64,000 bases of DNA, from the NCBI GenBank assembly GCA_965218795.1, contig OZ244653.1:800001-864000 (forward strand), in the 5' to 3' direction. This stretch comes from a bacterium (GTDB taxonomy: Bacteria; UBA8248; JACPRG01; G963555815). A program made the translations under genes and the position numbers. Below are positions 1,749 through 57,077 of the stretch, piece after piece (position 1 is the first letter of the stretch; the number at the start of each line of letters is the position of its first letter). The notes beneath the pieces are model-generated. The model searched no databases and was not told the DNA's origin. It saw only the letters and a program-made list of their open reading frames with translations.

Positions 1749-2366
1749 TCAACGCGCCGCGACGGCGCTGATCACTTCCCCCGCCTTGGATACCCAGCCG
1801 AACTTCATCGCAAAGTTCTTCAACGCGGCCTCGTGCAGGTCCTCCGCGTAGGACGAGACCGCATCGGAGACCAATGTTGTCCTGAAACCGCGGTGGAAGG
1901 CCTCTCGGGCGGTTTCTTCAACGCAGATCTGCGTCACCGTCCCGGTCACGAACAGGGATTCCACGTGACGGGCCTTGAGGATATCTTCGAGGTTGGTGTT
2001 GTGAAAGGCCCCGTATCCGAACTTCTCTACAATTGGGTCTTCAGGTTCAGGATAGATCTCCTCGATGATGTCCGAGCAGTCCAGGTCCTTCTCGACATCC
2101 TCATAATGACGGGGATGTCCCTTCCAGCAGCAGCAGACAGGCGGAGCCAGCATGGGCGACCACTCCCAAACAAGCGTGGGCTCAGGGCCGGCCAGAAATT
2201 TCGTGTAGATGACAGGAAGGTTTTTCGCCCGGCAAAAGGCGATGAGCTCCTGGTGGGTGGAGATGGTTTCCCGGGCCTGGGGAACCTCCAAAGGGGCCCC
2301 GACCCGAACGAAATCGTTCTGCATGTCGACAATGACCAAGGCCGGCTGGGCCAGATGGTCAACCAT
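1749..2366 (-). CDS. Isochorismatase-family cysteine hydrolase
   Basis: ALVIVDMQNDF, VEKFGYGAF, GTVTQICVEETAREAF (D-K-C triad); ATG at 2366 with GGGGGAAG upstream. Confidence 0.9.
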   Translation of the reverse strand: MVDHLAQPALVIVDMQNDFVRVGAPLEVPQARETISTHQELIAFCRAKNLPVIYTKFLAGPEPTLVWEWSPMLAPPVCCCWKGHPRHYEDVEKDLDCSDIIEEIYPEPEDPIVEKFGYGAFHNTNLEDILKARHVESLFVTGTVTQICVEETAREAFHRGFRTTLVSDAVSSYAEDLHEAALKNFAMKFGWVSKAGEVISAVAAR

Positions 2367-2895
2367 ATCGGCTTCCCCCAAACGCAAATGCCGGAATCAT
2401 GCGTGACCGTAGAGTCTCGCGGCGTTTTGGCCAGGAGTGAATCCAGCGCGTCATCCGGAATCATCGTTTCCCGTTTCGACGCGGTGTCTTCCCCTTCGTT
2501 TACACGTGCGGATGACGGCCATTAGAATTGCCTACACTCGCCTTGTCAAGAATTCTACAGCTCCCGCCCCATGCTCAAGGACTTCATGTTCGAATGATAT
2601 CTCCTGAGAAATCCGGTTTTGGTGGAATTCTAAAACTTTCGTATTGTATTCGTTGAAAGGCTTGTGAGTGGAAAGGGAGAGGGAGAGAGTGGCGCATGTG
2701 CGGTCAATCAATCGAAAAAACCGATGGGTTGTCTGTTTGGGCGCTTGTGGAATATTAAAAAAGGACCAAACAAAGCCAAATAACTATTGTCGAATAAGGA
2801 AAAGTGATTTGTGTTCGGACCATGAAAGCCAAATATTCGGGTTCAAGTTATCGGTAAAAACGATGGTAAGGCGAGTCCACAGACTCCGGCAGGCG

Positions 2896-2973
2896 CTCCG
2901 AGCGAAGGGAGGGATCTCCGCTGGTTTGATGGAGAACAAGAATGAAAGAACGGGATTCCCCGTCCGAAATGAC
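2896..2973. repeat. Degenerate REP-like (CGTC/GTCATTCC-type) bipartite element
   Basis: CTCCGAGCGAAGGGAGGGATCTC ... GGGATTCCCCGTCCGAAATGAC resembles the paired GTCATTCCGAGCGAAGCGAGGAATCT / AGATTCC...GGAATGAC intergenic repeats; heavily eroded. Confidence 0.35.
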
Positions 2974-3174
2974 AGAGAGGCGTTGCAGAGCAGCGCGAAA
3001 ACGCCGAGGCGCGTTGCCTCCTCCGCGAACAAACGGTTTTGATGCGAGGGGACATACCCGGAATGGGCGGGGGCAGTGACCCGCCCCGACATGCCGCGCG
3101 GAGGGACATCACCACTATGCGCGTGGTGAATGCGGTCCAGGTCGGAGATCCGGTACCGCGTCAGGGCGAAGCCC

Positions 3175-4086
3175 TCAACGCGGCGAATGCGATGCAACGG
3201 GACGTTGCCGGCCCGGGTCGATGCCCCGGCGGTGGGCTTCGAAGGTCCGGAGGACGATGGGGATGAGCCCTTCCTCGGGCAGGCCGAGCTCGGAGAAAAC
3301 CCGGCGGGCGATGTCTTCAACAGGGTTGGGAGAGGGGGCCAACTCCTTTTCCGCCAGGCGGACGAGGCGGTCGATGTCCCGGATATATTCCTCGCCCGCG
3401 TCGATGTGCGCCCGGACCTGGTCTCCGCGCGAGACCTTCAGGCTCATGGCGGACAACAAAAAGTCGGCGTTCACAGAGCGGAGTTTTTCGAGGCTGGCCA
3501 GGGTCTGACCGACGTCCTCATAAATGGGCAGCGTCCCCGGCTCGGGCAAAACGTCCCCGCTGATCAACACCCCATCCTTGGGGATGTACAGTGAAACGCT
3601 TCCCGCTGAATGGCCGGGGGTATGAAAGACGTGGACTTCCACACCATCGCCCAGATCGATCACATCGCCTTCGTTGATCTCCCGATGCACCAGCACGGGG
3701 CCGGAGCACAGGTCGATCATCTTCCCCACGGGCCGGACGCGCATCTGGCGCTCCAGGTCCTCGATGCATGGGATGTCCATCGGATGAGCGCAAAAACTCG
3801 GGTCCGCCAATTCCTGAAACACCCCGTTGCCGCCGATGTGGTCGAAGTGGCAGTGGGTGTTGATGACAACGTCCACGTCCTCCGGGTTCATGCCGATGGT
3901 TTCGATGAATCCGAAAATGCCCTCAGCCGCGGGCGCAACGGCCGTATCCACAACCGCGAGCTTCCCGCCCTCGATGACGTAGGACGTGACGAACCGGGGG
4001 ATCTTCTCCCCGCCCGGCAGTTCGATCTCGAACTCCGGCCAGAGGGCGTGAACGTGCGGGGAAATGAACATCGGCTCTCTGGACAT
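3175..4086 (-). CDS. Metallo-beta-lactamase-fold metallohydrolase
   Basis: THCHFDHIGG (HxHxDH), HTPGHS and SGD motifs. Confidence 0.9.
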   Translation of the reverse strand: MSREPMFISPHVHALWPEFEIELPGGEKIPRFVTSYVIEGGKLAVVDTAVAPAAEGIFGFIETIGMNPEDVDVVINTHCHFDHIGGNGVFQELADPSFCAHPMDIPCIEDLERQMRVRPVGKMIDLCSGPVLVHREINEGDVIDLGDGVEVHVFHTPGHSAGSVSLYIPKDGVLISGDVLPEPGTLPIYEDVGQTLASLEKLRSVNADFLLSAMSLKVSRGDQVRAHIDAGEEYIRDIDRLVRLAEKELAPSPNPVEDIARRVFSELGLPEEGLIPIVLRTFEAHRRGIDPGRQRPVASHSPR

Positions 4087-4232
4087 GAAAACCTATCAAC
4101 AGGTGGCAGCACGCCACAACCATCTTGCCGCGCCAGGGGTGGCGGTTTGGGCCGGAACAGTGGCCGTCCCCGACAAACGCCGCGGAGCAGCGCATATGTG
4201 AGCCAGGTCGATGACCTGGCGGCGCGGCGCCT

Positions 4233-4979
4233 CTAGCTCATGACCGAGCCGCCGTTCACCGAGATGGTTTGGCCCGTGATGAAATCGGAATCCGGGCTCA
4301 GCAGGAAGACGATCGTCCCGATCATGTCCTCCGGGACCTCGCGCCGCTGGATGGCCCGCGATTTGTTGATCATCTCGTCGTGCTCCGGGCGCTCCTTCAG
4401 GTCTCTCGCGTGAGGGATGTAATCCGGCGCAACGGAGTTGACGTTGATGCCGAATTCGCCGCACTCCCGGGCCAGAGCGCGCGAGAACCCAACCACCCCG
4501 GCCTTGGACGTTACGTAATGGATCAGACCCGGCGTGCCCTTGAAGATCGTGTTCGACGCGATGTTGATGATGCGGCCCTTTTTCTGCTCCTTCATGTAAG
4601 GCACGACCGCCCTGGAGCACAGAAAGATGCCCCGCAAGTTGACGGCCATGACGCGGTCCCACTCGTCCACAGGGATGTCGGAGAAGGGCTTGACCGAGAG
4701 GTCATGATAAACGGCGGCGTTGTTGAGCAGGCCGTCGATCCGCCCGTAGGTGTCGTGGGCCGTCTTCGCCATTTCCAGGGCCGCCTTCTCATCGGAAACG
4801 TCAACGGAGACGGCAATCGCCTCGCCCCCGGCCCCTTCGATCTCACTGACTGTCTCGGATGCGTCGAGGATATCCGCGGCGACCACTCTGGCGCCTTCGG
4901 CCGCCAGCGCCTTGGCGTACACGCGGCCGATGTTGCGGCTCGCGCCGGTGACAATCACAACCTCGTCTTTCAGTCTCAT
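4233..4979 (-). CDS. Short-chain dehydrogenase/reductase (SDR)
   Basis: TGASRNIG cofactor loop, LNNAA, catalytic YVTSK, ITGQTISVNGG. Confidence 0.92.
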   Translation of the reverse strand: MRLKDEVVIVTGASRNIGRVYAKALAAEGARVVAADILDASETVSEIEGAGGEAIAVSVDVSDEKAALEMAKTAHDTYGRIDGLLNNAAVYHDLSVKPFSDIPVDEWDRVMAVNLRGIFLCSRAVVPYMKEQKKGRIINIASNTIFKGTPGLIHYVTSKAGVVGFSRALARECGEFGINVNSVAPDYIPHARDLKERPEHDEMINKSRAIQRREVPEDMIGTIVFLLSPDSDFITGQTISVNGGSVMS

Positions 4980-47673: not shown

Positions 47674-48297
47674 CTAATCTGCCGCGAGATTGCCGCGGTT
47701 CGTCTCGGACGGGAGGTCATCCATGAGGACACGATCGCCTTCGATTCGGATGCGTCCCTCCGCAAACCACCGTACGGCCATCGGATAGATCCGGTGCTCT
47801 TCCCGCAGGATTCGCTCCGACAGGGATTCCTCGTCATCCTTCTCGAACACAGGAACAGGAGCCTGCGCGAGGATCGGCCCGTGGTCCACCCATTCGTCGA
47901 CAAGGTGCACGGTGGCGCCCGATACCCGCACGCCGCGCTCCAGGGCCTGCTTCTGCGCATTCAGGCCGGGAAAAGCGGGGAGCAGCGAAGGGTGAACGTT
48001 CAGGATGGGAACGCTCGCGGCCCGAATGAAGTCACCACTGAGGATCCGCATAAACCCGGCGAGGCAAACGAGATCAACCGAGGCTTCTCGCAGCGCCGGC
48101 AAGGCCTCCCGCTCGAAGGACTTTTGTGGGATATATCGACTCGGAATCTTGTTCCGTTGAGACCGAACGAGAGCCGCAGCGTCCGCCACGTTGCTCAGGA
48201 CCAGGGCAATCCTCGATTTGAGGTATCCCGAATCGGCTGCATCCATCAGCGCCTTAAGGTTGGAACCCCGCCCGGAAACGAAAACCGATATGTTCAT
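47674..48297 (-). CDS. purN: Phosphoribosylglycinamide formyltransferase
   Basis: SGRGSNL, LAGFMRIL, NVHPSLLP, GATVHLV, DHGPI, EH. Confidence 0.96.
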   Translation of the reverse strand: MNISVFVSGRGSNLKALMDAADSGYLKSRIALVLSNVADAAALVRSQRNKIPSRYIPQKSFEREALPALREASVDLVCLAGFMRILSGDFIRAASVPILNVHPSLLPAFPGLNAQKQALERGVRVSGATVHLVDEWVDHGPILAQAPVPVFEKDDEESLSERILREEHRIYPMAVRWFAEGRIRIEGDRVLMDDLPSETNRGNLAAD

Positions 48298-49376
48298 GAC
48301 TCTACGGGTTCCAGGGTGACGCGGGCCCCGGATCCGGAGGCCGCATCGATTCCTCCAATTTTGTAGACCTCTTCCCCGGCCGACTGCAGAACCGTTATGG
48401 CTTCGTCGGCGTTGGATGAGGCAACCACCAAAATCAGCCCGATGCCTAGATTGAACACGTCGGCCATTTCTTCCGGAGAGATCGAACCCGCCGACCGAAG
48501 ATAATCGAACACGGGAGGTTCGGGCCAGGCACTCGGATCCACGACCGCCCGGCAGTCATCGCTCAGTATTCGGGAAAGATTTCCAGGTATTCCCCCGCCG
48601 GTGATGTGGGCGATGCCCTTGATGGGCGTTGTCGTCAGGGTTGCGCGAACGGCCCGGACGTACAGACGCGTGGGCGCCAGAAGCGCATTTGCCAGGGATT
48701 GCCCTCCCTCCCCGCCGGGAAGCGGAGAATCCAAACCCCTTCCCTCCTGATCCAGGATCCGGCGGATGAGGGAGAACCCATTACTGTGAGGGCCACTCGA
48801 AGACAGGCCAAGAAGCGTATCTCCCGGCCGAATTGCCCGTCCGTCAATCACGTGGTTCCGGTCCACGATGCCGACAGCGCAACCAGCCAGGTCATAACGG
48901 CCATTCGGGTAATAATCGGGCATCTCGGCCGTCTCCCCCCCCAGCAGCGCACAGCCCGCCTCCATGCAGGCATCCGCAATTCCGGCCACTACGTCGACCG
49001 CAAGCTCCGGATCGAGTCTGCCCATAGCCAGATAATCCAGGAAAAATAAGGGCTCTGCACCTTGCGCCAGCACATCATTGACACACATGGCGACCAGGTC
49101 CCAGCCGGCAACGGAATGCCGGCCGGCTCGGATGAGCAGATCCAGCTTTGTACCGACCCCATCCATCCCCGCGATCAGGACCGGCTCCCGGAACCCCCCA
49201 GGGATCCGCATGCACCCGCCGAAACCGCCGATCCCTCCTTCCACCTCCGACCGTCGCGTCCGATCGGCCAGTGCGCGCAGGCGCGGCACAATCGCGTCAG
49301 CCAGACGCAGGTCGACACCGGCTTCCCGGTACGCCGGCCTGTTCTTATCCGATTGGGGGGGATTGGATCGCGTCAC
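48294..49376 (-). CDS. purM: Phosphoribosylformylglycinamidine cyclo-ligase
   Basis: YREAGVD, GGFGG, DGVGTK, AMCVND, GGETAEMP, SSGPHSNG, AHITGGG. Confidence 0.97.
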   Translation of the reverse strand: MTRSNPPQSDKNRPAYREAGVDLRLADAIVPRLRALADRTRRSEVEGGIGGFGGCMRIPGGFREPVLIAGMDGVGTKLDLLIRAGRHSVAGWDLVAMCVNDVLAQGAEPLFFLDYLAMGRLDPELAVDVVAGIADACMEAGCALLGGETAEMPDYYPNGRYDLAGCAVGIVDRNHVIDGRAIRPGDTLLGLSSSGPHSNGFSLIRRILDQEGRGLDSPLPGGEGGQSLANALLAPTRLYVRAVRATLTTTPIKGIAHITGGGIPGNLSRILSDDCRAVVDPSAWPEPPVFDYLRSAGSISPEEMADVFNLGIGLILVVASSNADEAITVLQSAGEEVYKIGGIDAASGSGARVTLEPVES

Positions 49377-51571
49377 GCAGACTGGAGCTTGCGGAGCAGT
49401 TTGATGTTTTCGGTATGCCCGCTCATGCGGGCTGTCACCTTGCCCCGGATGGGACGGCCGAGGAGAAACAGATCGCCGATGACGTCCAGAATCTTGTGGC
49501 GGACAAACTCATCAGGGAAGCGGAGTTTGGTGTTGAGCACTTTCCCTTCGTCCAACAGGACAACGTTGTCCAGCCTGCCCCCTTCAACCAGCCCCCGCCT
49601 GCCCTGTAGCTCGACATCCTTGATTCGCCCGAAGGTTCGCGCCGGCGCAATGATATCCCGGAAGGTTTCCGGAGCGGTGAGCATAAATGTGAATTCCTGC
49701 GTACCGATAGGTTCGGGCAATACAAGGTGAAATTCAACGACAAAGTCGTTATGAGGCTCGATTTGAAGAATCGAAGGCACTCCATTGGTCCGATCGGACA
49801 CGACCTCTACAGCGGTCGCGGCCTTCAGCGGCTCCAGGACTGATTCCTGATCCACCACCCCGGCCTCTTCAATCAACCGGCAAAACTCCAGCGCCGACCC
49901 GTCCATGATGGGGATTTCTTCTTCCACCTTGATGAGCGCGTTGCTGATACCGTAAGCATGCAGGGTCGCCATGAGGTGCTCGATAGTACGGATCGTGATG
50001 TTTCCCTGGCGGAGGGTTGTTGCGAAAGCGGTGGATACGACGTTGTCGAGGTGTGCGGGAACCGTTTCTTCGGACGTAATATTGCCAAACAGAATCCCGC
50101 TGTCGGGAGGAAGAGGCGACAGGATCAGACCGGTCTTCAGGCCGGAGTGCAGGCCCTGACCGCTCAGGAGGATGCTCTTGCCCAAGGAGCGCTGATACAG
50201 CCCGGGCGGGCGCACAGGCAGCGCGGCGGCCAATCCGTATGTCTTCATCTTGGTCCGCAGGGCGCCTTCCGAGATACCCAGTTGCGATGCGGTCTTCCTC
50301 AGATTTCCGTCATGTTTTTGGAGGAGTTTATAGAGGTAACTTCGCTCCCAATCAACGTTTTCATTGACATGGATCGGTAGCGGTTGCAACCCGTTGGTTG
50401 GGCCGCCGCGCAACTCGGCGGGCAACTGGGACAGACCAATCGCCTCGTCTGATCTCTCCCGGGCAGCAAGGTCCTCCACAACGTTCTTCAGAGACTTGAT
50501 ATTCTCAGGCCAACCGTAGCTCTCCATGGCTTGGAGCGCCTCTTCGTCGAATACCGGCCGTCGGAGTCCATGCTTGCTGCAGTATCGGGTGAGGAAGTGT
50601 TCGACCAGGCCCCGGATGTCCTCCCAGCGCTCCCGCAGAGGCGGCACCCGGATGGGCTTGGTCTGAATCAGCCCGGCGAGTTCCTCTCCGAACACCGATG
50701 AGAATGACTTCGTCCGAAGGTCCGCCTGGGTTGAAAAAATGACCCGCGCAGCGACCGGAACCGGTTCTCGGCCGTTTTTCCGGAGAAATTCTCCGCTCTT
50801 GAGGGTATCCGCTAGTCGCGACGCCAATTGCGGGTCAATCCGTTCCGATGCGAACAGGTACAGGGTTCCTTCCCCTACGGCTTCCATCAGTCCCCGATAA
50901 ATTTCACCTGCCGGGTCCTCGACGCCGAAGACCATTGTCATCAGCGGGATCCCCGATGGATTGCCGACTTGTCGGTCGCAATTCACTCGGGCGAAGGCAT
51001 GTCCGATTCCGGAGCGGCGAACCTGTAGCAAGTGAGCGACCAGCTCCCTCCCCGTGCCGGATTCTCCGTAAATCACTATGGAGCCCGATTCGAATGAGGT
51101 CGATTCAATCTCCCGCCATAATTCAAAGACCGCCTGGCTTCGCCCGATCAACTCAGGCAACTTGTCCAGGCGGTCCCTGACATTCTCGTTGCCGCGCAAG
51201 AGCTCTTGCTGGCGGAGGGCCAGTTCCACGGTGTGAACAACCTGGTCCAGTGAGAAGGGCTTCTCAATGAAGTCGAAGGCGCCGAGTTTTGTCGCCTTGA
51301 CGGCTGTCTCGATGTTGGCGTGACCGGACATCATGATGACTCCCAAATCGGCACGCTGATTCCGGACCGCCTGGAGAACCTGAATCCCATCCAACCCGGG
51401 GAGCCACACATCCAGCAGAACGATGTCAGGGGACTCGCGATTCATGATCGTCAGGGCCTCATCTCCGTCCGATGCCTGTACCGTCGTGAACCCTTCGTCC
51501 TGCAAAATTCCCTGGAGGGAGTGTCGGATGCTCTCTTCATCGTCGACGATCAGGATGTGGCCCCGACTCAA
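49373..51571 (-). CDS. lpxC: Fusion protein: NtrX-like response regulator (REC, degenerate AAA+, Fis HTH) plus LpxC (UDP-3-O-acyl-GlcNAc deacetylase)
   Basis: Single ORF. REC: ILIVDDE, LLDVWLPG, MMSGH, FIEKP. AAA+-like: GESGTGRE, PPLRER. HTH: GNLRKTASQLGIS. From ~50197 LpxC: QRSL, GQGLHSG, TIEHL, EIPIMDGSA, ARTFG, HKILDVIGDL, SGH. TTG at 51571 follows GGGAGA. Confidence 0.92.
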   Translation of the reverse strand: MSRGHILIVDDEESIRHSLQGILQDEGFTTVQASDGDEALTIMNRESPDIVLLDVWLPGLDGIQVLQAVRNQRADLGVIMMSGHANIETAVKATKLGAFDFIEKPFSLDQVVHTVELALRQQELLRGNENVRDRLDKLPELIGRSQAVFELWREIESTSFESGSIVIYGESGTGRELVAHLLQVRRSGIGHAFARVNCDRQVGNPSGIPLMTMVFGVEDPAGEIYRGLMEAVGEGTLYLFASERIDPQLASRLADTLKSGEFLRKNGREPVPVAARVIFSTQADLRTKSFSSVFGEELAGLIQTKPIRVPPLRERWEDIRGLVEHFLTRYCSKHGLRRPVFDEEALQAMESYGWPENIKSLKNVVEDLAARERSDEAIGLSQLPAELRGGPTNGLQPLPIHVNENVDWERSYLYKLLQKHDGNLRKTASQLGISEGALRTKMKTYGLAAALPVRPPGLYQRSLGKSILLSGQGLHSGLKTGLILSPLPPDSGILFGNITSEETVPAHLDNVVSTAFATTLRQGNITIRTIEHLMATLHAYGISNALIKVEEEIPIMDGSALEFCRLIEEAGVVDQESVLEPLKAATAVEVVSDRTNGVPSILQIEPHNDFVVEFHLVLPEPIGTQEFTFMLTAPETFRDIIAPARTFGRIKDVELQGRRGLVEGGRLDNVVLLDEGKVLNTKLRFPDEFVRHKILDVIGDLFLLGRPIRGKVTARMSGHTENIKLLRKLQSA

Positions 51572-51593
51572 AACGGTCTCTCCCAAAGTCTGC

Positions 51594-53819
51594 TCATACC
51601 GCAAGCCGTGTACGCGCCGCCTCTCTGTTCAGCGGGAGACGGATTTCAAACGTCGCTCCCTGTGGCACCGAATCCCGGACCTCGATGGTGCCGTCGTGGT
51701 CGGCGATGATCCGGTGGACGATGGCCAGTCCCAGGCCGGTCCCGCGCCGCTTCGTTGTAAAGTACGGGAGAAATAGCCTGTTGCGATCCTCCTCGGAGAT
51801 TCCCGGACCGTCGTCACTCACTTCGATCTTGACCATCTCCTGGAAATTGTCGCAGAAGGTCCGGATGTTCAATCGGCCCGCGTCCGGCGTGACATCGATG
51901 GCATTGTCGATCAGGTTGATAAAGACTCGCTTGAGTTGTTCCTCATCCGCCTGGATCGGGCCCAGTCGGTCGTCTAATTCGGTTTCAAACCGCACCACCC
52001 TCGAATGGCCGCTGTACAGCGAGATCGTCTCCTGAATGATCTTGTGGAGATCGCATGCACCGGGTCTGGGCTCAGGCATGCGGGCGAACCCTGAAAACTC
52101 GTTGAGCAATTCCATGAGTCCTTTGACCTGGTTAATGATAACAGAGGTGCATTCCTGAAATACGGCGTGGAAGTCCGGTGCCTTTTCCAGGTATTTTTTC
52201 CGCAACCGCTGTGTCGCCAGCTGAATGGGTGTCAGCGGGTTCTTGATTTCGTGTGCGATCCCCTGCGCCACCTCCCGCCAGGCCGCCAATTTTTGCGCTT
52301 TCACCAGTTCGGTCAAATCCTCGAACACGAGGACCATGCCAGATCCTTTTCCCTCCCAGTCGGTCAACACACTGACGCTGATCAGCAGGGTCAACAGACG
52401 GCCTCCCACGGTCACCGAACGCTGCGCCTCCAGGCGATCCAGCCGGCTTCGGGCGATCTCCCGGAATAACTCGCGGGCTGGTTCGATCAACGCCGGGCTG
52501 AAGACCCGGCGGTAATGGGAGTCTAAGACCTCCACCCCCTGAATGCCCAGCATCGCCTCCGCCGCCCGATTGATCGTGGTGACCCGTCCTCGACGATCCA
52601 GGGAGACCACGCCGGCGCCAATCCGCTCCAGCACCCTTTCCATATACACCCGCCGGCTCTCCAGCTCGGTATTAGATTGTTCCAGCCATTCCTTTCCGCG
52701 CTTCAGATCGGCCGTCATGGCGTTGAAGGCGTCCACCAGATAACCGATTTCGTCGTCACCTTCCCGGGCGACATGGATATCCAGATTTCCTCCGGAGACG
52801 GCGCGGGTACCCTCGACCAAGGCTTTGATGGGTTCGGTGATTCCCCGAGCAAGGTAGAAACCAAACCAGATGGCCGAGAAGATGATCAACAAGGTAATCA
52901 ACAAGAAAGTGATCAGGTAGCTGACTTTGAGGGGGTCCCCGAACATCTCGAGCTGTTTGTACTCGCGGTAAGCCCCGATGACGCTTTCCATCTTCTTCGT
53001 GAGGTCGTTTGGCACATATCGGGAAACGACGAGCAAACCCAGCTTCCGGTCCTTTCCGGTTCCCGACTCCAACGCGCTCACAGCCCGAACGACACGTCCA
53101 GACCCCACCTGCTGCCGCTCCACGACAATTTTCCCGCTCATCGCGCGGTCCACCTGATCGGGTGTTTTTTTCTCAATCAGAAGGTCTTTTGACAAACTTT
53201 CATTGCGGACATTCAGGAAGGATTTTTGATCGGCGGTCAGGATCTGCAGGGCGTCCACCTGATGCTCGTGAAGCTTTTCTTCAAGATAAACCTTCAGGGC
53301 AAAGTTATCCGCCGGACGAGTTAAGTCCGAAACATCGATTTGCCTCGCGAGCGTGGAGGTCAGCCTGGACAGCCGCCGGTCGGTTTCATCGCCGATCTTT
53401 TTCACCACCTCTTGGGAGTCCTTGAGGGTGCTCTCAACCTGCGAGTTGAACCAACTCTCGATACTCCGGTTGATCAATCCGTTCGCCACGACGAAGAGCA
53501 AGACGGAAGGAGTCAGCGCAAGGCCGACGAAGGCGGTGACCAGCTTCGCCCGAAACTTTGTGCCAATCGCGCCGCGGCGGCGCTCGTAATAGAGTTTCAG
53601 CAGATTGCGCAGGACGAGCAGAACCAGCGCCAGCAGCAAGATGACGTTGACATTGACCAGGGCATAGACGATGACGTTGTTCGCCATCAAATGAGCGGGA
53701 TTGAACTCGAAATAGATCCCGGTGATCGTCAGGATGAGGATGATGCAGACCGCGCCTGTAACGATGCGGCGGACCCTTCGTCTTGCATGCCCGTTCTCAT
53801 TTTTCGGTGCGTTCGACAT
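51594..53819 (-). CDS. ntrY: NtrY-like membrane sensor histidine kinase (TM, periplasmic, HAMP, PAS, HisKA, HATPase)
   Basis: N-terminal TMs with ...SIESWF, HAMP (DEIGYLVDAFNAM), AWREVAQGIAHEIKNPLTPIQL, NLIDNA, DDGPGI, PYFTTK, GTGLGLAI; start could extend to 53903. Confidence 0.9.
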   Translation of the reverse strand: MSNAPKNENGHARRRVRRIVTGAVCIILILTITGIYFEFNPAHLMANNVIVYALVNVNVILLLALVLLVLRNLLKLYYERRRGAIGTKFRAKLVTAFVGLALTPSVLLFVVANGLINRSIESWFNSQVESTLKDSQEVVKKIGDETDRRLSRLTSTLARQIDVSDLTRPADNFALKVYLEEKLHEHQVDALQILTADQKSFLNVRNESLSKDLLIEKKTPDQVDRAMSGKIVVERQQVGSGRVVRAVSALESGTGKDRKLGLLVVSRYVPNDLTKKMESVIGAYREYKQLEMFGDPLKVSYLITFLLITLLIIFSAIWFGFYLARGITEPIKALVEGTRAVSGGNLDIHVAREGDDEIGYLVDAFNAMTADLKRGKEWLEQSNTELESRRVYMERVLERIGAGVVSLDRRGRVTTINRAAEAMLGIQGVEVLDSHYRRVFSPALIEPARELFREIARSRLDRLEAQRSVTVGGRLLTLLISVSVLTDWEGKGSGMVLVFEDLTELVKAQKLAAWREVAQGIAHEIKNPLTPIQLATQRLRKKYLEKAPDFHAVFQECTSVIINQVKGLMELLNEFSGFARMPEPRPGACDLHKIIQETISLYSGHSRVVRFETELDDRLGPIQADEEQLKRVFINLIDNAIDVTPDAGRLNIRTFCDNFQEMVKIEVSDDGPGISEEDRNRLFLPYFTTKRRGTGLGLAIVHRIIADHDGTIEVRDSVPQGATFEIRLPLNREAARTRLAV

Positions 53820-53992
53820 GTCCAACCGTGGCTGCGCCTTGTGAAGCGAACGGTCAATCGATCTGGGCGTTGTCTCAATTCGCCCTGATGCCCCATGATT
53901 CAAATCCGGCGGTTCTTCTTTCCCGGGGCTTCGCTATCTTATCCTTAAAATGCATTATCTAACGAAAATGGAGCCCCCCGGGCAAGGCAAAT

Positions 53993-56704
53993 TCATTTCT
54001 CCGGCTCCAGTTCCAATTCCCGCTTCAGTTCGTGAAGAAAATTGAGCGCCTCGATGGGTGTCATTTGATCCGGTTCGGCGTCCCTGATTTTTTGTATCAA
54101 CTCCGGCGAATGGCCATGAAACAGAGGCAACTGACCGGGGTCGCTCGGCGGGTGCGCGAGGGACCTCGCCCATTGATTTTCGTCCTCAAAGGTTGCCAGC
54201 ATCTGTTCGGCACGTTTCAGCGTAGGACCGGGAAATCCCGCCAGCCGGGCGACATGAATCCCGTAACTCCGGTCGGATGTTCCCTCGACGACCTGGCGCA
54301 AAAAAACAACATTTCCCCTATATTCCCTAGCCAGCATCGCAAGATTCTGGACTCGCGCAAGGCGGTTCGCCAATTCGGCCAACTCATGATAGTGGGTTGC
54401 AAAAAGGGTGCGGGGACCGATGTCCCCTTCGCCGTGGAGGTGCTCGGCAACGGCCCAGGCGATGCTGATGCCGTCAAAGGTCGAGGTGCCGCGTCCGATC
54501 TCATCGAGGATCACCAGGCTTCTCGGTGTCGCGTGATGGAGGATGTAGGCGGTTTCCACCATTTCCACCATGAAAGTGCTCTGCCCGCGCTGGAGTCGGT
54601 CGTGCGCGCCGACCCTGGTGAAGACCCGGTCGATCAGCCCGATCCGGGCCGCTTCGGCGGGGACAAAACTCCCCACTTGCGCAAGAAGCACAATCAAGGC
54701 GACCTGGCGGATATAAGTCGACTTGCCGGCCATGTTGGGTCCGGTGACAACGAGGACCTGGCGCTCGGAGGCGCTGAGGTCGGCATGATTCGGCACGAAG
54801 CGTTCTTCCAGGGCCGCCGGAGACTGCTCCAGAACCGGGTGCCGCCCTTCCCGGATCATGATGTCACCGGATTCATCCACCTCCGGCTCGACATATTGGA
54901 GGCGGGATGCGTTTTCGGCGAAGGTCGAGAGCACATCCAGCGAGGCCAATCGCCGGGCGGCACTCTGAATCCTGTCCGTTTCCGTCAGGACGGCGGTCCG
55001 GATCTCTTGGAATATCTCATATTCCATGTCCCGGGCCCGAGAGTCCGCCTCGAGGACCTCTTCCTCGGTTTTCTTCAGTTCGGGCGTGACATACCGCTCG
55101 GCGTTGGTCAGAGTCTGGCGACGCGTATATTCTGGGGGCACGTGGGTTTCCTCGCGCTTGCTGACCTCCAGGCAGTAGCCAAAAACTTTGTTGTAGACGA
55201 TCTTCAAATTCCTGATGCCCGTCCGAGCCCGCTCTTCCTCCTCATAAGAGCGGAGCCATGACTTGGCGTCCTGACTCATCCGGCGCAAACGGTCCAATTC
55301 GTCCCGGTAGCCGAGATTGATGAGACCGCCGTCTCGAAGAGTGATGGGCGGCGCATCGACCACGGCGGCGTCAATGCCTTCGACGACGTCGGCCATGTCA
55401 TCCCATGCCGAGAGCTGTTCACGGATGAGGACGGTATCCATTTCCGAAATCACTTTGCGCACCGCTGGAAGCGTCTGAAGGGACCGACAGAGATTTCGAA
55501 GGTCCCGCGCGTTTCCCGGCCCCAGATGGAGCCTGGCCAGCAACCTTTCGATGTCGCCTATCGTTCCCAAGGCCCCCCGCAATCCATCCTGGGCCGCGGC
55601 GTTCTCCTTCAAGGCACGGACCGTTTCGAGTCGGGCCCGAATCGGCTCCTTCCGGACGAGCGGATGGAGCAGCCAGTTTCTGAGCATGCGCCCGCCCATG
55701 GGCGTTACGGTTCGGTCCAGAACCTGAAGCAGCGTCCCGCTCCTTTCCCCCTCGGGTCCGGCGCGGAGGATTTCCAGATTGCGCAGAGTGGCAGCGTCCA
55801 GCAGCATCGTTTCGCCACGGGTGACCGCGCGCGGCGCGCGAAGATGTCCCAGGCGGTCTCCCTGGGTGTCCCGCAGGAAGGTGTAGAGCGCCCCCGCGGC
55901 CCCGGTCCCTAACGGCATGTCATCCAGGCCCAGCCCTTGCAAGGAACCGAGGCCGAAACCCGAGCGGAGAACGCGGGCGCCTTCTTCCGGTTCAAATGTC
56001 CAGGAGGGCTGTCGGCTGATCAATATGTTTCCCCTCTCCCGTAATGCCGGAGATTGCCGGTGCGGGTGGAAACCGTCTTCCGCGTCCTCGGGCAGAAGGA
56101 GCTCCTTGGGTTCCAGATCGGCCCATTCATCAGCGAGGAGAGACCACCGCTCCCTGCCCTCCAATTCCAGGACACCGAATTCTCCAGTCGAGAGATCGGC
56201 GAACGCAAACCCCACGGAATCCACGCCTTCAGTCATGGCGGCCAGGTAGTTACCGGACTTGGATTCGAGGACTTGGGGCTGGGTGGCTGTACCCGGCGAG
56301 ACCACCTGAATCACCTCACGTTTGACCAGTCCCTTCGCCTTCTTCGGGTCCTCGACCTGGTCGCAGACGGCCACGCGGTATCCGGCCTTGACCAGGCGCG
56401 CCACATAGCCTTCCGCGGCGTGATGGGGAAATCCGCACATCGGCACCCTCCCCTGGGCGTCGTCGTGCCGCGAGGTGAGCGCGAGGTCGAGCACCGGCGC
56501 CGCAGTCTCGGCGTCTTCATAGAACATTTCGTAAAAGTCGCCCATCCGGAAAAACAGGATGGCATCCGGATGCCCCCGCTTGATGCTTCTGTACTGCCGC
56601 ATCATGGGGGTCAGCGCGGTTTCCTTTGCAGCTTGGGTCTTGGGAGAAACCGGGGCCGTTTTTCGGGAGGCGTCGTCAGTCGGAAGGGATGGGGTTTTCG
56701 TCAA
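53993..56704 (-). CDS. mutS: DNA mismatch repair protein MutS
   Basis: TPMMRQY, FRMGDFYEMF, GPNMAGKST, STFMVEM, DEIGRGTST, ATHYHEL, SYGIHVA; start at 56704 assumed. Confidence 0.97.
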   Translation of the reverse strand: MTKTPSLPTDDASRKTAPVSPKTQAAKETALTPMMRQYRSIKRGHPDAILFFRMGDFYEMFYEDAETAAPVLDLALTSRHDDAQGRVPMCGFPHHAAEGYVARLVKAGYRVAVCDQVEDPKKAKGLVKREVIQVVSPGTATQPQVLESKSGNYLAAMTEGVDSVGFAFADLSTGEFGVLELEGRERWSLLADEWADLEPKELLLPEDAEDGFHPHRQSPALRERGNILISRQPSWTFEPEEGARVLRSGFGLGSLQGLGLDDMPLGTGAAGALYTFLRDTQGDRLGHLRAPRAVTRGETMLLDAATLRNLEILRAGPEGERSGTLLQVLDRTVTPMGGRMLRNWLLHPLVRKEPIRARLETVRALKENAAAQDGLRGALGTIGDIERLLARLHLGPGNARDLRNLCRSLQTLPAVRKVISEMDTVLIREQLSAWDDMADVVEGIDAAVVDAPPITLRDGGLINLGYRDELDRLRRMSQDAKSWLRSYEEEERARTGIRNLKIVYNKVFGYCLEVSKREETHVPPEYTRRQTLTNAERYVTPELKKTEEEVLEADSRARDMEYEIFQEIRTAVLTETDRIQSAARRLASLDVLSTFAENASRLQYVEPEVDESGDIMIREGRHPVLEQSPAALEERFVPNHADLSASERQVLVVTGPNMAGKSTYIRQVALIVLLAQVGSFVPAEAARIGLIDRVFTRVGAHDRLQRGQSTFMVEMVETAYILHHATPRSLVILDEIGRGTSTFDGISIAWAVAEHLHGEGDIGPRTLFATHYHELAELANRLARVQNLAMLAREYRGNVVFLRQVVEGTSDRSYGIHVARLAGFPGPTLKRAEQMLATFEDENQWARSLAHPPSDPGQLPLFHGHSPELIQKIRDAEPDQMTPIEALNFLHELKRELELEPEK

Positions 56705-56711
56705 GGCGTTT

Positions 56712-57077
56712 TCAATGGTCGGCCGAGGGCGCCCGGACGGGACCCACCTCGGACGAGTGCGCAGGTTCGATGTCCTCGCCTTCGGCCAAGACCGGAACCA
56801 GACTTCGCTCCTCCATCTCCTGAACGCGGTCACGGAGCTTACGCAGGTCTGCTTGATCCCGTCTCGATTTCCACCGGAGCCGGACTTTTTCCACGATATG
56901 GAAAACCCATGCCGAAACGGCCCCCAATGCGAAGGCCATCAACAGGAGATAGAACAAAGGCACGGTTCGGCTGGGCAGGCCGTAGAAGCCGACCGTCGCC
57001 AGGTGCATGTTCTTGACCCCAAACGTGACAAGGAGAAGAACGCCCGCCAGGGCGAGAATGAATCGGAAGGCGCCCAT
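56712..57077 (-). CDS. lapA: LPS assembly protein LapA-like (DUF1049)
   Basis: Two TM helices with F..KN and PL..LLL.AF..G pattern, followed by a basic coiled coil (RLRWKSRR...LRKLRDRVQEME). Confidence 0.7.
   Translation of the reverse strand: MGAFRFILALAGVLLLVTFGVKNMHLATVGFYGLPSRTVPLFYLLLMAFALGAVSAWVFHIVEKVRLRWKSRRDQADLRKLRDRVQEMEERSLVPVLAEGEDIEPAHSSEVGPVRAPSADH

Follow-up and report, generated by a model that had tools for sequence, protein, structure and literature searches.

Can the output of a two-component response regulator be the enzyme that starts outer-membrane synthesis? The question is raised by a gene in a window of 64,000 nucleotides (nt) on contig OZ244653.1 (assembly GCA_965218795.1, positions 800,001 to 864,000 of the forward strand; all coordinates below are those of this window unless a genome or locus is named). 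LpxC is the enzyme committing the cell to lipid A synthesis for the outer membrane. The gene, located at 49373..51571 on the minus strand, encodes a receiver, a degenerate AAA+ module with its lid, a helix-turn-helix (HTH) and LpxC in one protein of 732 amino acids (aa), followed by a TGA stop at 49373–49375. An initial annotation, made from the DNA letters alone, had described it as an NtrX–LpxC fusion encoded next to an NtrY-type kinase and had proposed that NtrY signalling acts on LpxC itself. The best reading we can give of the sequence is that this one polypeptide would serve as the cell's only LpxC and, at the same time, as a two-component response regulator whose output is the enzyme LpxC. 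Response regulators with enzymatic outputs and two-component control of lpxC transcription are already known; a receiver fused to an essential, sole LpxC and conserved across whole classes appears to be undescribed.

The longest possible open reading frame (ORF) of the gene is 49373..51604 (minus strand), which is uninterrupted and encodes 743 aa from the first TTG. Residue numbers follow the 732-aa protein unless marked as 743-numbering. All features lie on the minus strand. From the N-terminus, Pfam identifies a receiver (REC) at residues 6–115 (51227..51556; Response_reg, 108.7 bits, 17–126 in 743-numbering), the core of a degenerate sigma54-type AAA+ domain at residues 141–299 (50675..51151; Sigma54_activat, 54 bits, 152–310 in 743-numbering) and an AAA+ lid at residues 313–391 (50399..50635; AAA_lid_14, 62.6 bits, 324–402 in 743-numbering). 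These are followed by a Fis-type HTH at residues 409–445 (50237..50347; HTH_8, 26.2 bits with a cut-off of 22, 420–456 in 743-numbering) and a complete LpxC domain at residues 460–730 (49382..50194; PF03331, 264 bits, 471–741 in 743-numbering). The linker between HTH and LpxC (residues 446–459, 50195..50236) is variable in the family alignment, with a predicted local distance difference test score (pLDDT) below 50 at residues 450–456. The LpxC match covers positions 1–267 of the 268 in the profile, the NCBIfam model for lpxC (TIGR00325) scores 232 bits (cut-off 187), and the protein ends two residues past the LpxC match. The single frame with receiver, AAA+-like domain, HTH and full LpxC that had been read from the translation is thus confirmed.

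The front part had been named NtrX. The best NCBIfam model is indeed NtrX (NF051870), but the score of 306 bits is below the equivalog cut-off of 600 and we therefore call this part NtrX-like. The closest solved structure for residues 5–446 is PDB 5m7n (238 bits), titled 'Nitrogen assimilation regulatory protein', which we take to be Brucella NtrX. No solved structure covering both the regulator and the LpxC halves was found by sequence search against the PDB. Annotation pipelines label the fusion homologues either 'LpxC' or 'NtrX'.

The start best supported by the sequence is the probable TTG start at 51571–51569, which is preferred because a Shine-Dalgarno-like GGGAGAG (51578..51584, minus strand) is found at the proper distance and because the resulting N-terminus is like those of relatives. 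These start 3–5 residues ahead of the hhhhDDE motif, several of them on a TTG after AAAGGA. Counted from TTG 51571, the gap to the stop of the upstream kinase gene (TGA 51596–51594) is 22 nt, close to the ∼20 bp first given, while a start at the first TTG (51604) would produce an 11-nt overlap of the two ORFs.

The upstream gene (51594..53903, minus strand, from the first TTG; alternative start ATG 53819) encodes an NtrY-type sensor histidine kinase. This assignment had been made by eye, and Pfam now finds the full order NtrY_N (38.4 bits, cut-off 23.2), HAMP, PAS, HisKA and HATPase_c, with all domains above their cut-offs. No other NtrY_N match was found in the genome. An NtrY-like kinase is also encoded directly upstream of the fusion gene in 28 of the 33 other fusion loci examined.

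Whether the gene is the only lpxC of its genome had been left as a check, and the answer is that the fused LpxC is the single LpxC match in a single-contig genome of 5.17 Mb (98.9% complete). The gene for LpxA (with an lpxD-like neighbour) and that for LpxB are found together ∼3.45 Mb from the fusion gene. With lpxA and lpxB present and a sole LpxC match, the fused LpxC should be the working enzyme. The EH pair, the HKxLD...D motif and the SGH histidine, noted earlier in the window protein, are not only present there: residues E531, H532, T646, H692, K693, D696, D700 and H719 are invariant in all 116 aligned family members. Zinc binding and catalysis are presumably the roles of these residues, which form the E-H pair, HKxxD...D, the T-F of ARTF and the SGH histidine. 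The possibility that the LpxC domain is a pseudo-enzyme or a ligand sensor was considered and rejected, as the catalytic residues are invariant and no other LpxC is found in the genome. The fused copy was also the only LpxC match in nine of nine fusion-bearing genomes of other lineages that were queried.

The receiver is as intact as its Response_reg score and the initial annotation suggest. All 116 aligned family members keep D10, D11, the phospho-acceptor D54 (51410–51412, minus strand) and K104. Position 82 is S in the window protein and T in the consensus.

What the receiver controls can be approached through a second, shorter form of the protein, which consists only of the receiver, a low-complexity linker of 24–70 residues and LpxC, ∼430–450 aa in total. 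We scanned 65 of the 116 members of the family alignment (alignment A2) for domains, namely the window protein, 51 other long forms and 13 short forms. LpxC and REC were each found in 65/65. Sigma54_activat was found in 52/52 long forms. The 13 short forms contain neither Sigma54_activat nor the HTH, and among the 52 long forms HTH_8 was detected in just 8. Two long forms from Desulfomonile gave no HTH family match at all. The short forms leave the receiver no domain but LpxC to act on, and the phospho-residues and the kinase are kept, so the conserved function would be receiver-dependent control of LpxC. The central proposal that NtrY signalling acts on LpxC itself is thereby strongly favored. 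A second suggestion, that the ligand state of LpxC feeds back on DNA binding, does not survive as a conserved function given the same HTH counts. From these sequences, outer-membrane synthesis in the organisms carrying the fusion seems to be under direct phosphorylation control.

The AAA+ domain is present, as had been noted, but it is far more degenerate than the label 'AAA+-like' implied, with Walker A, Walker B, the arginine finger and GAFTGA all lost. In the window protein the Walker A lysine is replaced by R and the acidic pair of Walker B is gone, this stretch reading LYLFASERI. Compared with unfused relatives from lpxC-linked gene clusters, the fused proteins have lost the Walker B pair, the FRxDLYxRLNV arginine-finger region and the sensor II arginine, whereas Walker B and the arginine-finger region are kept in the unfused neighbors. 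Sigma54_activat scores 54 bits in the window protein and 198–252 bits in the unfused relatives. Neither the window protein nor the fused-family consensus contains GAFTGA or an accepted variant of it, and the canonical GAFTGA is found in neither the fused nor the unfused group compared. As the fused AAA+ lacks the parts required for sigma54 activation, the module is predicted to be a pseudo-ATPase that is no longer able to activate sigma54.

AlphaFold2 models the HTH of the window protein as three helices (residues 406–419, 424–431, and 435–444). The AAA+ domain and the HTH are best read as an accessory remnant of an ancestral transcription factor of the NtrX/NtrC type, a reading suggested by their sequences and distribution. 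The remnant may act as a scaffold, or it may serve autoregulation in those forms that keep the HTH. On the side of sigma54 itself, the genome of the window has one Sigma54_DBD match (G000:C1:600593–601069; 200 bits), which is part of an open frame no longer than 187 aa. This is short for a sigma54 protein.

The relation between the two forms was examined in a tree of LpxC domains with 91 rows (23 receiver-fused, of which 9 long and 14 short, and 68 stand-alone; IQ-TREE quick search, LG+G4). The tree does not include L003, L004, L006, L007, L009, L011, and L014, which are near-duplicates, or L005, which has the same place as L095. All 23 fused domains fall on one side of a single branch with a Shimodaira–Hasegawa-like approximate likelihood ratio test (SH-aLRT) support of 100% and a length of 0.52. 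Fifteen positions separate the fused clade from the 68 stand-alone LpxC domains, and the signature positions G481, C564, G623, Q625, L672, and T681 are invariant within the clade. The two forms are mixed across the clade, and a minimum of three changes between long and short is required by the well-supported branches. The short form L094 is nested among long forms and retains a recognizable vestige of the final HTH helix directly before LpxC, which makes it a deletion derivative of a long form. A history in which the long form came first and was then shortened by repeated deletions is mechanistically simpler, though not proven. Three proteins of 427–429 aa (P0051, P0093, and P0106) were considered as a third architecture and rejected; they begin inside the AAA+ lid and are most simply explained as truncated gene calls.

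The spread of the domain architecture, proposed earlier as a check on the fusion, was followed by protein and genome searches. A database search with residues 380–743 as the query scored 8000 candidates, of which 5954 proteins reached E ≤ 0.001. The best 120 of these 5954 matches all have LpxC together with AAA_lid_14, and 103 of the 120 are at least 700 aa long. Tectomicrobia, Nitrospinota, Deltaproteobacteria/Desulfobacterota, and Schekmanbacteria are among the source names of the best matches. Of the 51 genomes sampled in the phylum of the window, 50 contain an LpxC match, the exception being G001; the 45 full-length matches comprise 34 in frames of 712–755 aa and 11 in shorter frames, 8 of which were verified as receiver–LpxC. 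The class around a Syntrophobacteraceae genome (G053) has LpxC matches in 61/61 genomes, with all 59 full-length matches in frames of at least 411 aa. Here REC was found in frame 24–37 residues ahead of LpxC in 20/20 fetched loci, and in frame also in the 4/4 loci with very long frames (24/24 checked overall). These very long frames (953–1423 aa) were considered as three-way fusions of kinase, receiver and LpxC, but this was rejected since the kinase is in another frame in 4/4 loci and the frame lengths are due to stop-poor, GC-rich DNA.

Other lineages are more mixed. All 41 genomes of the class around a Desulfomonile genome (G052) have an LpxC match, with 21 of the 41 in frames of 692–764 aa and 20 in frames of 272–353 aa. 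The class around a Thermodesulfovibrionia genome (G054) has matches in 60/61 genomes, only 2 of its 58 full-length matches being of fused size and 56 lying in 294–334 aa; the scarce fusions fit a sporadic acquisition that displaced the native gene. In a phylum-level sample around a Binataceae-labelled genome (G055), 39/41 genomes have a match and 9 of 40 matches lie in frames of at least 424 aa. Scanning one genome per species, we found fusions among the best 80 of at least 600 stretches in Thermodesulfobacteriota, Desulfomonile and Syntrophobacter/Syntrophobacteraceae metagenome-assembled genomes (MAGs), and also in Thermodesulfovibrionia, Binataceae and 'Deltaproteobacteria' MAGs. Among the best 150 representatives, ∼38 of at least 400 aa (counted by eye) match in two stretches or end to end; by size alone, with domains not confirmed singly, 15 of these are 650–736 aa and 23 are 400–505 aa. 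The fusion is conserved across the phylum of the window, near-universal in the sampled G053 class, present in half of the Desulfomonile class and sporadic in Thermodesulfovibrionia.

Some broken genes were seen along the way. In the Thermodesulfobacteriota MAG locus L017 the frame of a long form changes inside the AAA+ domain at ∼4240–4267, with REC and the first half in frame 2 and the rest with LpxC in frame 1; the break comes either from a frameshift or from faulty assembly. LpxC matches in pieces and in different frames were found at G098:C5:524273–525078 (four pieces) and G029:C19:33661–34399 (two pieces), and are possibly frameshifted genes or sequencing errors.

A link between lpxC and ntrY-type genes is also seen without fusion. 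The order lpxC, DUF4390, ntrY-like kinase, and sigma54-type regulator with an intact AAA+ domain is found in two unfused loci, from Magnetococcales and Desulfobacula MAGs, where the DUF4390 gene between lpxC and the kinase lies at L041 1050–1757 and L091 1108–1707. A third unfused locus, in a 'Deltaproteobacteria' MAG, has lpxC, kinase and regulator at the same spacing, with an ORF in between, and in a fourth the stretch retrieved ends after lpxC and the kinase. In five of five Desulfomonile-class genomes inspected, an NtrY-like kinase gene begins ∼230 nt downstream of the stand-alone lpxC. No DUF4390 match was found in the genome of the window; the control genomes gave none either, so this is no evidence of absence. 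Two observations concern the far side of these unfused clusters: in the Magnetococcales locus a RelA_SpoT-domain gene (L041 5391–6572) directly follows the ntrX-like regulator, and in the Desulfobacula locus a gene for a Cons_hypoth95-type methyltransferase follows the regulator.

Published work points to the same link at the level of transcription. In Desulfovibrio vulgaris, the regulator DVU2934, encoded in an operon with the kinase DVU2931, is described as binding only upstream of lpxC, its sole target, and the authors also remark that the S. fumaroxidans operon with the orthologous regulator has lpxC immediately upstream of it (passages of PMC3333781). A transposon mutant of the D. alaskensis kinase Dde_3000 is reported with only lpxC upregulated, through the sigma54 activator Dde_3003 (passages of PMC4045070). 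For R. sphaeroides, loss of ntrYX is given as raising lpxC mRNA 8.8-fold and lipopolysaccharide (LPS), and the relevant passages list no NtrX chromatin immunoprecipitation peak at lpxC (PMC7240162). A 2025 review of lipid A regulation, in the sections that bear on this point, assigns NtrYX a broad transcriptional influence and describes regulation outside E. coli and a few relatives as largely open (PMC12444477); a word search of its text for 'fusion', 'fused', 'response regulator' and 'Desulfovibrio' gave nothing. Full-text literature searches, with most subscription journals outside their coverage, returned no paper describing an LpxC–receiver fusion. The earlier remark that no characterised example is known thus holds for the fusion, but not for dedicated two-component control of lpxC transcription, which has been published for Desulfovibrio (PMC3333781 and PMC4045070, in the passages cited). 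In another Desulfovibrionaceae genome we found an NtrY_N kinase near a sigma54-type regulator, and the latter shares 52% identity with the regulator found in the lpxC–DUF4390–ntrY–ntrX clusters.

Taken as a mechanism, the NtrY-type membrane kinase would sense an envelope, redox or membrane signal and phosphorylate D54 in the receiver encoded by the adjoining gene. The phosphorylation state of the receiver would then set the amount of LpxC activity post-translationally. Most likely, the receiver would do so by changing how the protein dimerizes or oligomerizes, or by altering the conformation of the LpxC domain tethered to it, as in other response regulators with enzymatic outputs. During evolution the AAA+ module would have been deleted repeatedly, leaving the unit of kinase, receiver and LpxC working. 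Phosphotransfer from NtrY to the receiver is something we infer, as are any effect of phosphorylation on LpxC, the sign of that effect and the signal sensed. We give control of LpxC activity through a receiver-driven change in dimer or oligomer state or in conformation a probability of roughly 0.6.

Several points weigh against this reading. Five of the 33 fusion loci (L015, L016, L017, L018, and L023) have no adjoining NtrY-type kinase. AlphaFold2 predicts well-folded domains but no fixed mutual arrangement for either the long form (mean pLDDT 87.1, predicted template-modelling score (pTM) 0.49, low-confidence linkers at 128–136, 391–405, and 450–456) or the short form (mean pLDDT 78.2, pTM 0.66, linker disordered at residues 132–177), and no structural mechanism is therefore visible. 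A complex prediction for REC (1–125) and LpxC (458–732) from alignment A2 scored 0.00 in both runs, which speaks neither for nor against binding. The LpxC tree is unrooted within the fused group, and the short forms branch first under midpoint rooting, which is why the long-first order above is not proven. From the sequence, internal initiation of a separate LpxC is possible, and there is no RNA run among the sequencing runs listed with the stretch. The orthology of DVU2931/DVU2934 to the NtrY/NtrX-like pair of the window, probable as it may be, rests on the similar operon in the other Desulfovibrionaceae genome and on the remark about S. fumaroxidans. One genome (G215) is the only one seen to carry both a stand-alone (369 bits) and a receiver-fused (249 bits) LpxC, with loci at G215:C33:20147–20956 and G215:C11:39479–40309 (L132). 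Finally, a genome of the same genus as that of the window (G001, 93% complete, 120 contigs) shows no LpxC match.

The main rival explanation is that phosphorylation controls the stability of LpxC rather than its activity. The receiver, with or without the AAA+ remnant, would then be a phosphorylation-dependent degron or a handle for a protease adaptor, and NtrY would set the level of LpxC in place of the FtsH/LapB route. This would agree with descriptions of LpxC in E. coli and Pseudomonas as being controlled mainly via protein level (passages of PMC3333781 and PMC12444477). The long disordered linkers of both forms would suit engagement by a protease, and the lack of a fixed REC–LpxC arrangement in the predictions fits as well; however, the sequence indicates no particular protease, nor is the locus accompanied by any adaptor or protease gene in the window. 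Conformational or oligomeric change is the usual way in which response regulators with enzymatic outputs operate, and this general knowledge also counts against a stability switch. We consider it unlikely.

Still more doubtful is the idea that the fusion only ensures co-expression, giving regulator and LpxC in a 1:1 ratio, or is a neutral accident that became fixed. The halves would then be independent, the regulator binding DNA and LpxC remaining unregulated. The flexible linkers and the absence of confident packing between the domains would allow this, and HTH_8 is still detectable in the window protein. However, its detection is limited to 8 of the 52 long forms, as noted, and the short forms, with neither a DNA-binding domain nor any other output, have still kept the kinase and an unvarying set of phospho-acceptor residues. 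Conservation of this degree would not be expected for a receiver that has no target. The fusion has furthermore stayed the sole lpxC across whole classes, which also argues against a neutral accident.

Translation could also begin internally, close to the domain boundary, and yield a separate LpxC, the long frame then being a translationally overlapped gene pair. An in-frame TTG (codon 447) and GTG (codon 453) are found just ahead of the LpxC domain, but neither has a purine-rich Shine-Dalgarno stretch and there is no promoter-like site near the junction. The earlier statement that no Met or Shine-Dalgarno is visible at this boundary thus stands, with these two start-like codons as the only candidates. 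A Met is not conserved in the family either: any M up to 12 residues upstream of LpxC is found in 22/116 members, in very few of them within 4 residues. As the junction is moreover read through in frame in every long and short homolog inspected, separate initiation appears very improbable. A promoter and terminator scan of 49200–54200 was uninformative for the junction and for the region upstream of ntrY, with one sigma70-like site (1.4 expected by chance) and nine terminator-like sites (5.1 ± 2.3 expected). The sigma54 promoter consensus, with two mismatches allowed, gave 38 matches in the window compared with 49 expected, none of them upstream of ntrY.

That a stop or frame boundary between two neighboring genes was lost in sequencing or assembly is refuted for practical purposes, since contigs of four runs from four studies each span 49300–51700 in one piece without gaps and more than 100 homologs of several lineages share the same frame. 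The four contigs carry 0, 9, 10, and 14 substitutions, and the run identical to the window may be the source of this DNA. Within the fusion coding sequence there are 16 substitutions (7 synonymous, 9 non-synonymous), and none of them creates a stop. A stop between HTH and LpxC, in reads or in relatives, had been named beforehand as a finding that would speak against the fusion. The junction is intact in the contigs of all four studies, and the frame is open in every long and short homolog inspected.

Direct control of LpxC by the receiver can be compared with several known systems. The Desulfovibrio system is similar in having a kinase and an NtrC-family regulator for which lpxC is the only mapped target (passages of PMC3333781 and PMC4045070), but it consists of separate genes and acts on transcription through a sigma54 promoter (PMC4045070, same passages). 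In the Desulfovibrionaceae genome we inspected, the AAA+ domain is also intact (252 bits), unlike that of the window protein. NtrY/NtrX of alphaproteobacteria and Neisseria share the kinase architecture and a regulator with REC, an AAA+ domain without GAFTGA and a Fis-type HTH. They differ in that the window regulator carries LpxC at its C-terminus and that its AAA+ domain also lacks Walker B and the arginine-finger region. The effect of alphaproteobacterial NtrYX on lpxC is moreover presented as transcriptional and indirect, within a regulon of dozens of genes (passages of PMC7240162 and PMC12444477).

LpxC–FabZ (NF009667/PRK13188) is the other natural LpxC fusion, and its model aligns with the LpxC region of the window protein (187 bits, 470–741 in 743-numbering). 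This is below the cut-off of 465, only the LpxC part is aligned, and the window protein has no FabZ domain. In LpxC–FabZ a metabolic partner is found C-terminal to LpxC, whereas the window protein has a signaling module on the N-terminal side. Known response regulators with enzymatic outputs are the methylesterase CheB, the GGDEF proteins PleD and WspR and the HD-GYP protein RpfG. They resemble the fusion in combining a receiver, a flexible linker and an enzyme set by phosphorylation, which for LpxC would hold by analogy, but their outputs are signaling enzymes. Regulators of the REC–HD-GYP type are discussed in parts of a recent preprint (10.1101/2021.11.05.467447). The FtsH/LapB(YciM)/YejM system of E. 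coli is likewise described as post-translational control of LpxC that balances LPS against phospholipid (passages of PMC12444477 and PMC3333781), but it uses a C-terminal degron and a membrane protease complex, while the candidate control element of the window enzyme is in its own N-terminus.

A receiver fusion to the sole LpxC that is kept across classes is strong 'Rosetta stone' evidence that NtrY-type signaling and LpxC are functionally coupled. It ties together the raised lpxC and LPS of NtrYX mutants, the two-component system dedicated to lpxC in Desulfovibrio and the synteny of lpxC and ntrY. As a tentative evolutionary scenario, one we hold to be possible and no more probable than about one in three, a regulator with lpxC as its single target gene could have become joined to LpxC itself, so that the receiver phosphorylated by NtrY gates the sole LpxC and forms a lipid A homeostat replacing an FtsH/LapB-type circuit in several lineages. 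If true, NtrY kinases in general would sense an envelope or LPS-related signal. How LpxC activity is set has been worked out well in E. coli and some relatives only, and the receiver–LpxC proteins of ∼430–450 aa with their kinase offer a minimal, tractable object for phosphorylation gating of a core envelope enzyme and for what NtrY senses. The fusion would also add a biosynthetic enzyme to the list of output domains of response regulators.

The fusion gene is situated within a tight run of genes on the same strand (47674–49376 and 53993–56833, minus strand). The ORF directly downstream (48294..49376, minus strand) is read as purM from its translation alone, and its GTG start overlaps the TGA stop of the fusion gene (GTGA). 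The next ORF is read as purN, again from the translation only, and overlaps the first by 4 nt. On the other side, a large ORF ending ∼90 nt upstream of the listed ntrY start is read as mutS, also from translation. Two of the loci without an adjoining NtrY-type kinase have features of their own. In L018, a genome of ∼1.1 Mb (1,094,362 bases, labelled chromosome), the short receiver–LpxC gene is the only LpxC match, and a sigma70-family gene is found upstream of it with no kinase within 4 kb. In L016, a hybrid kinase with three receiver matches as well as PAS, HisKA, and HATPase_c (1823–4384) is encoded ∼700 nt upstream of the Desulfomonile long-form fusion, and may be the alternative partner of this fusion.

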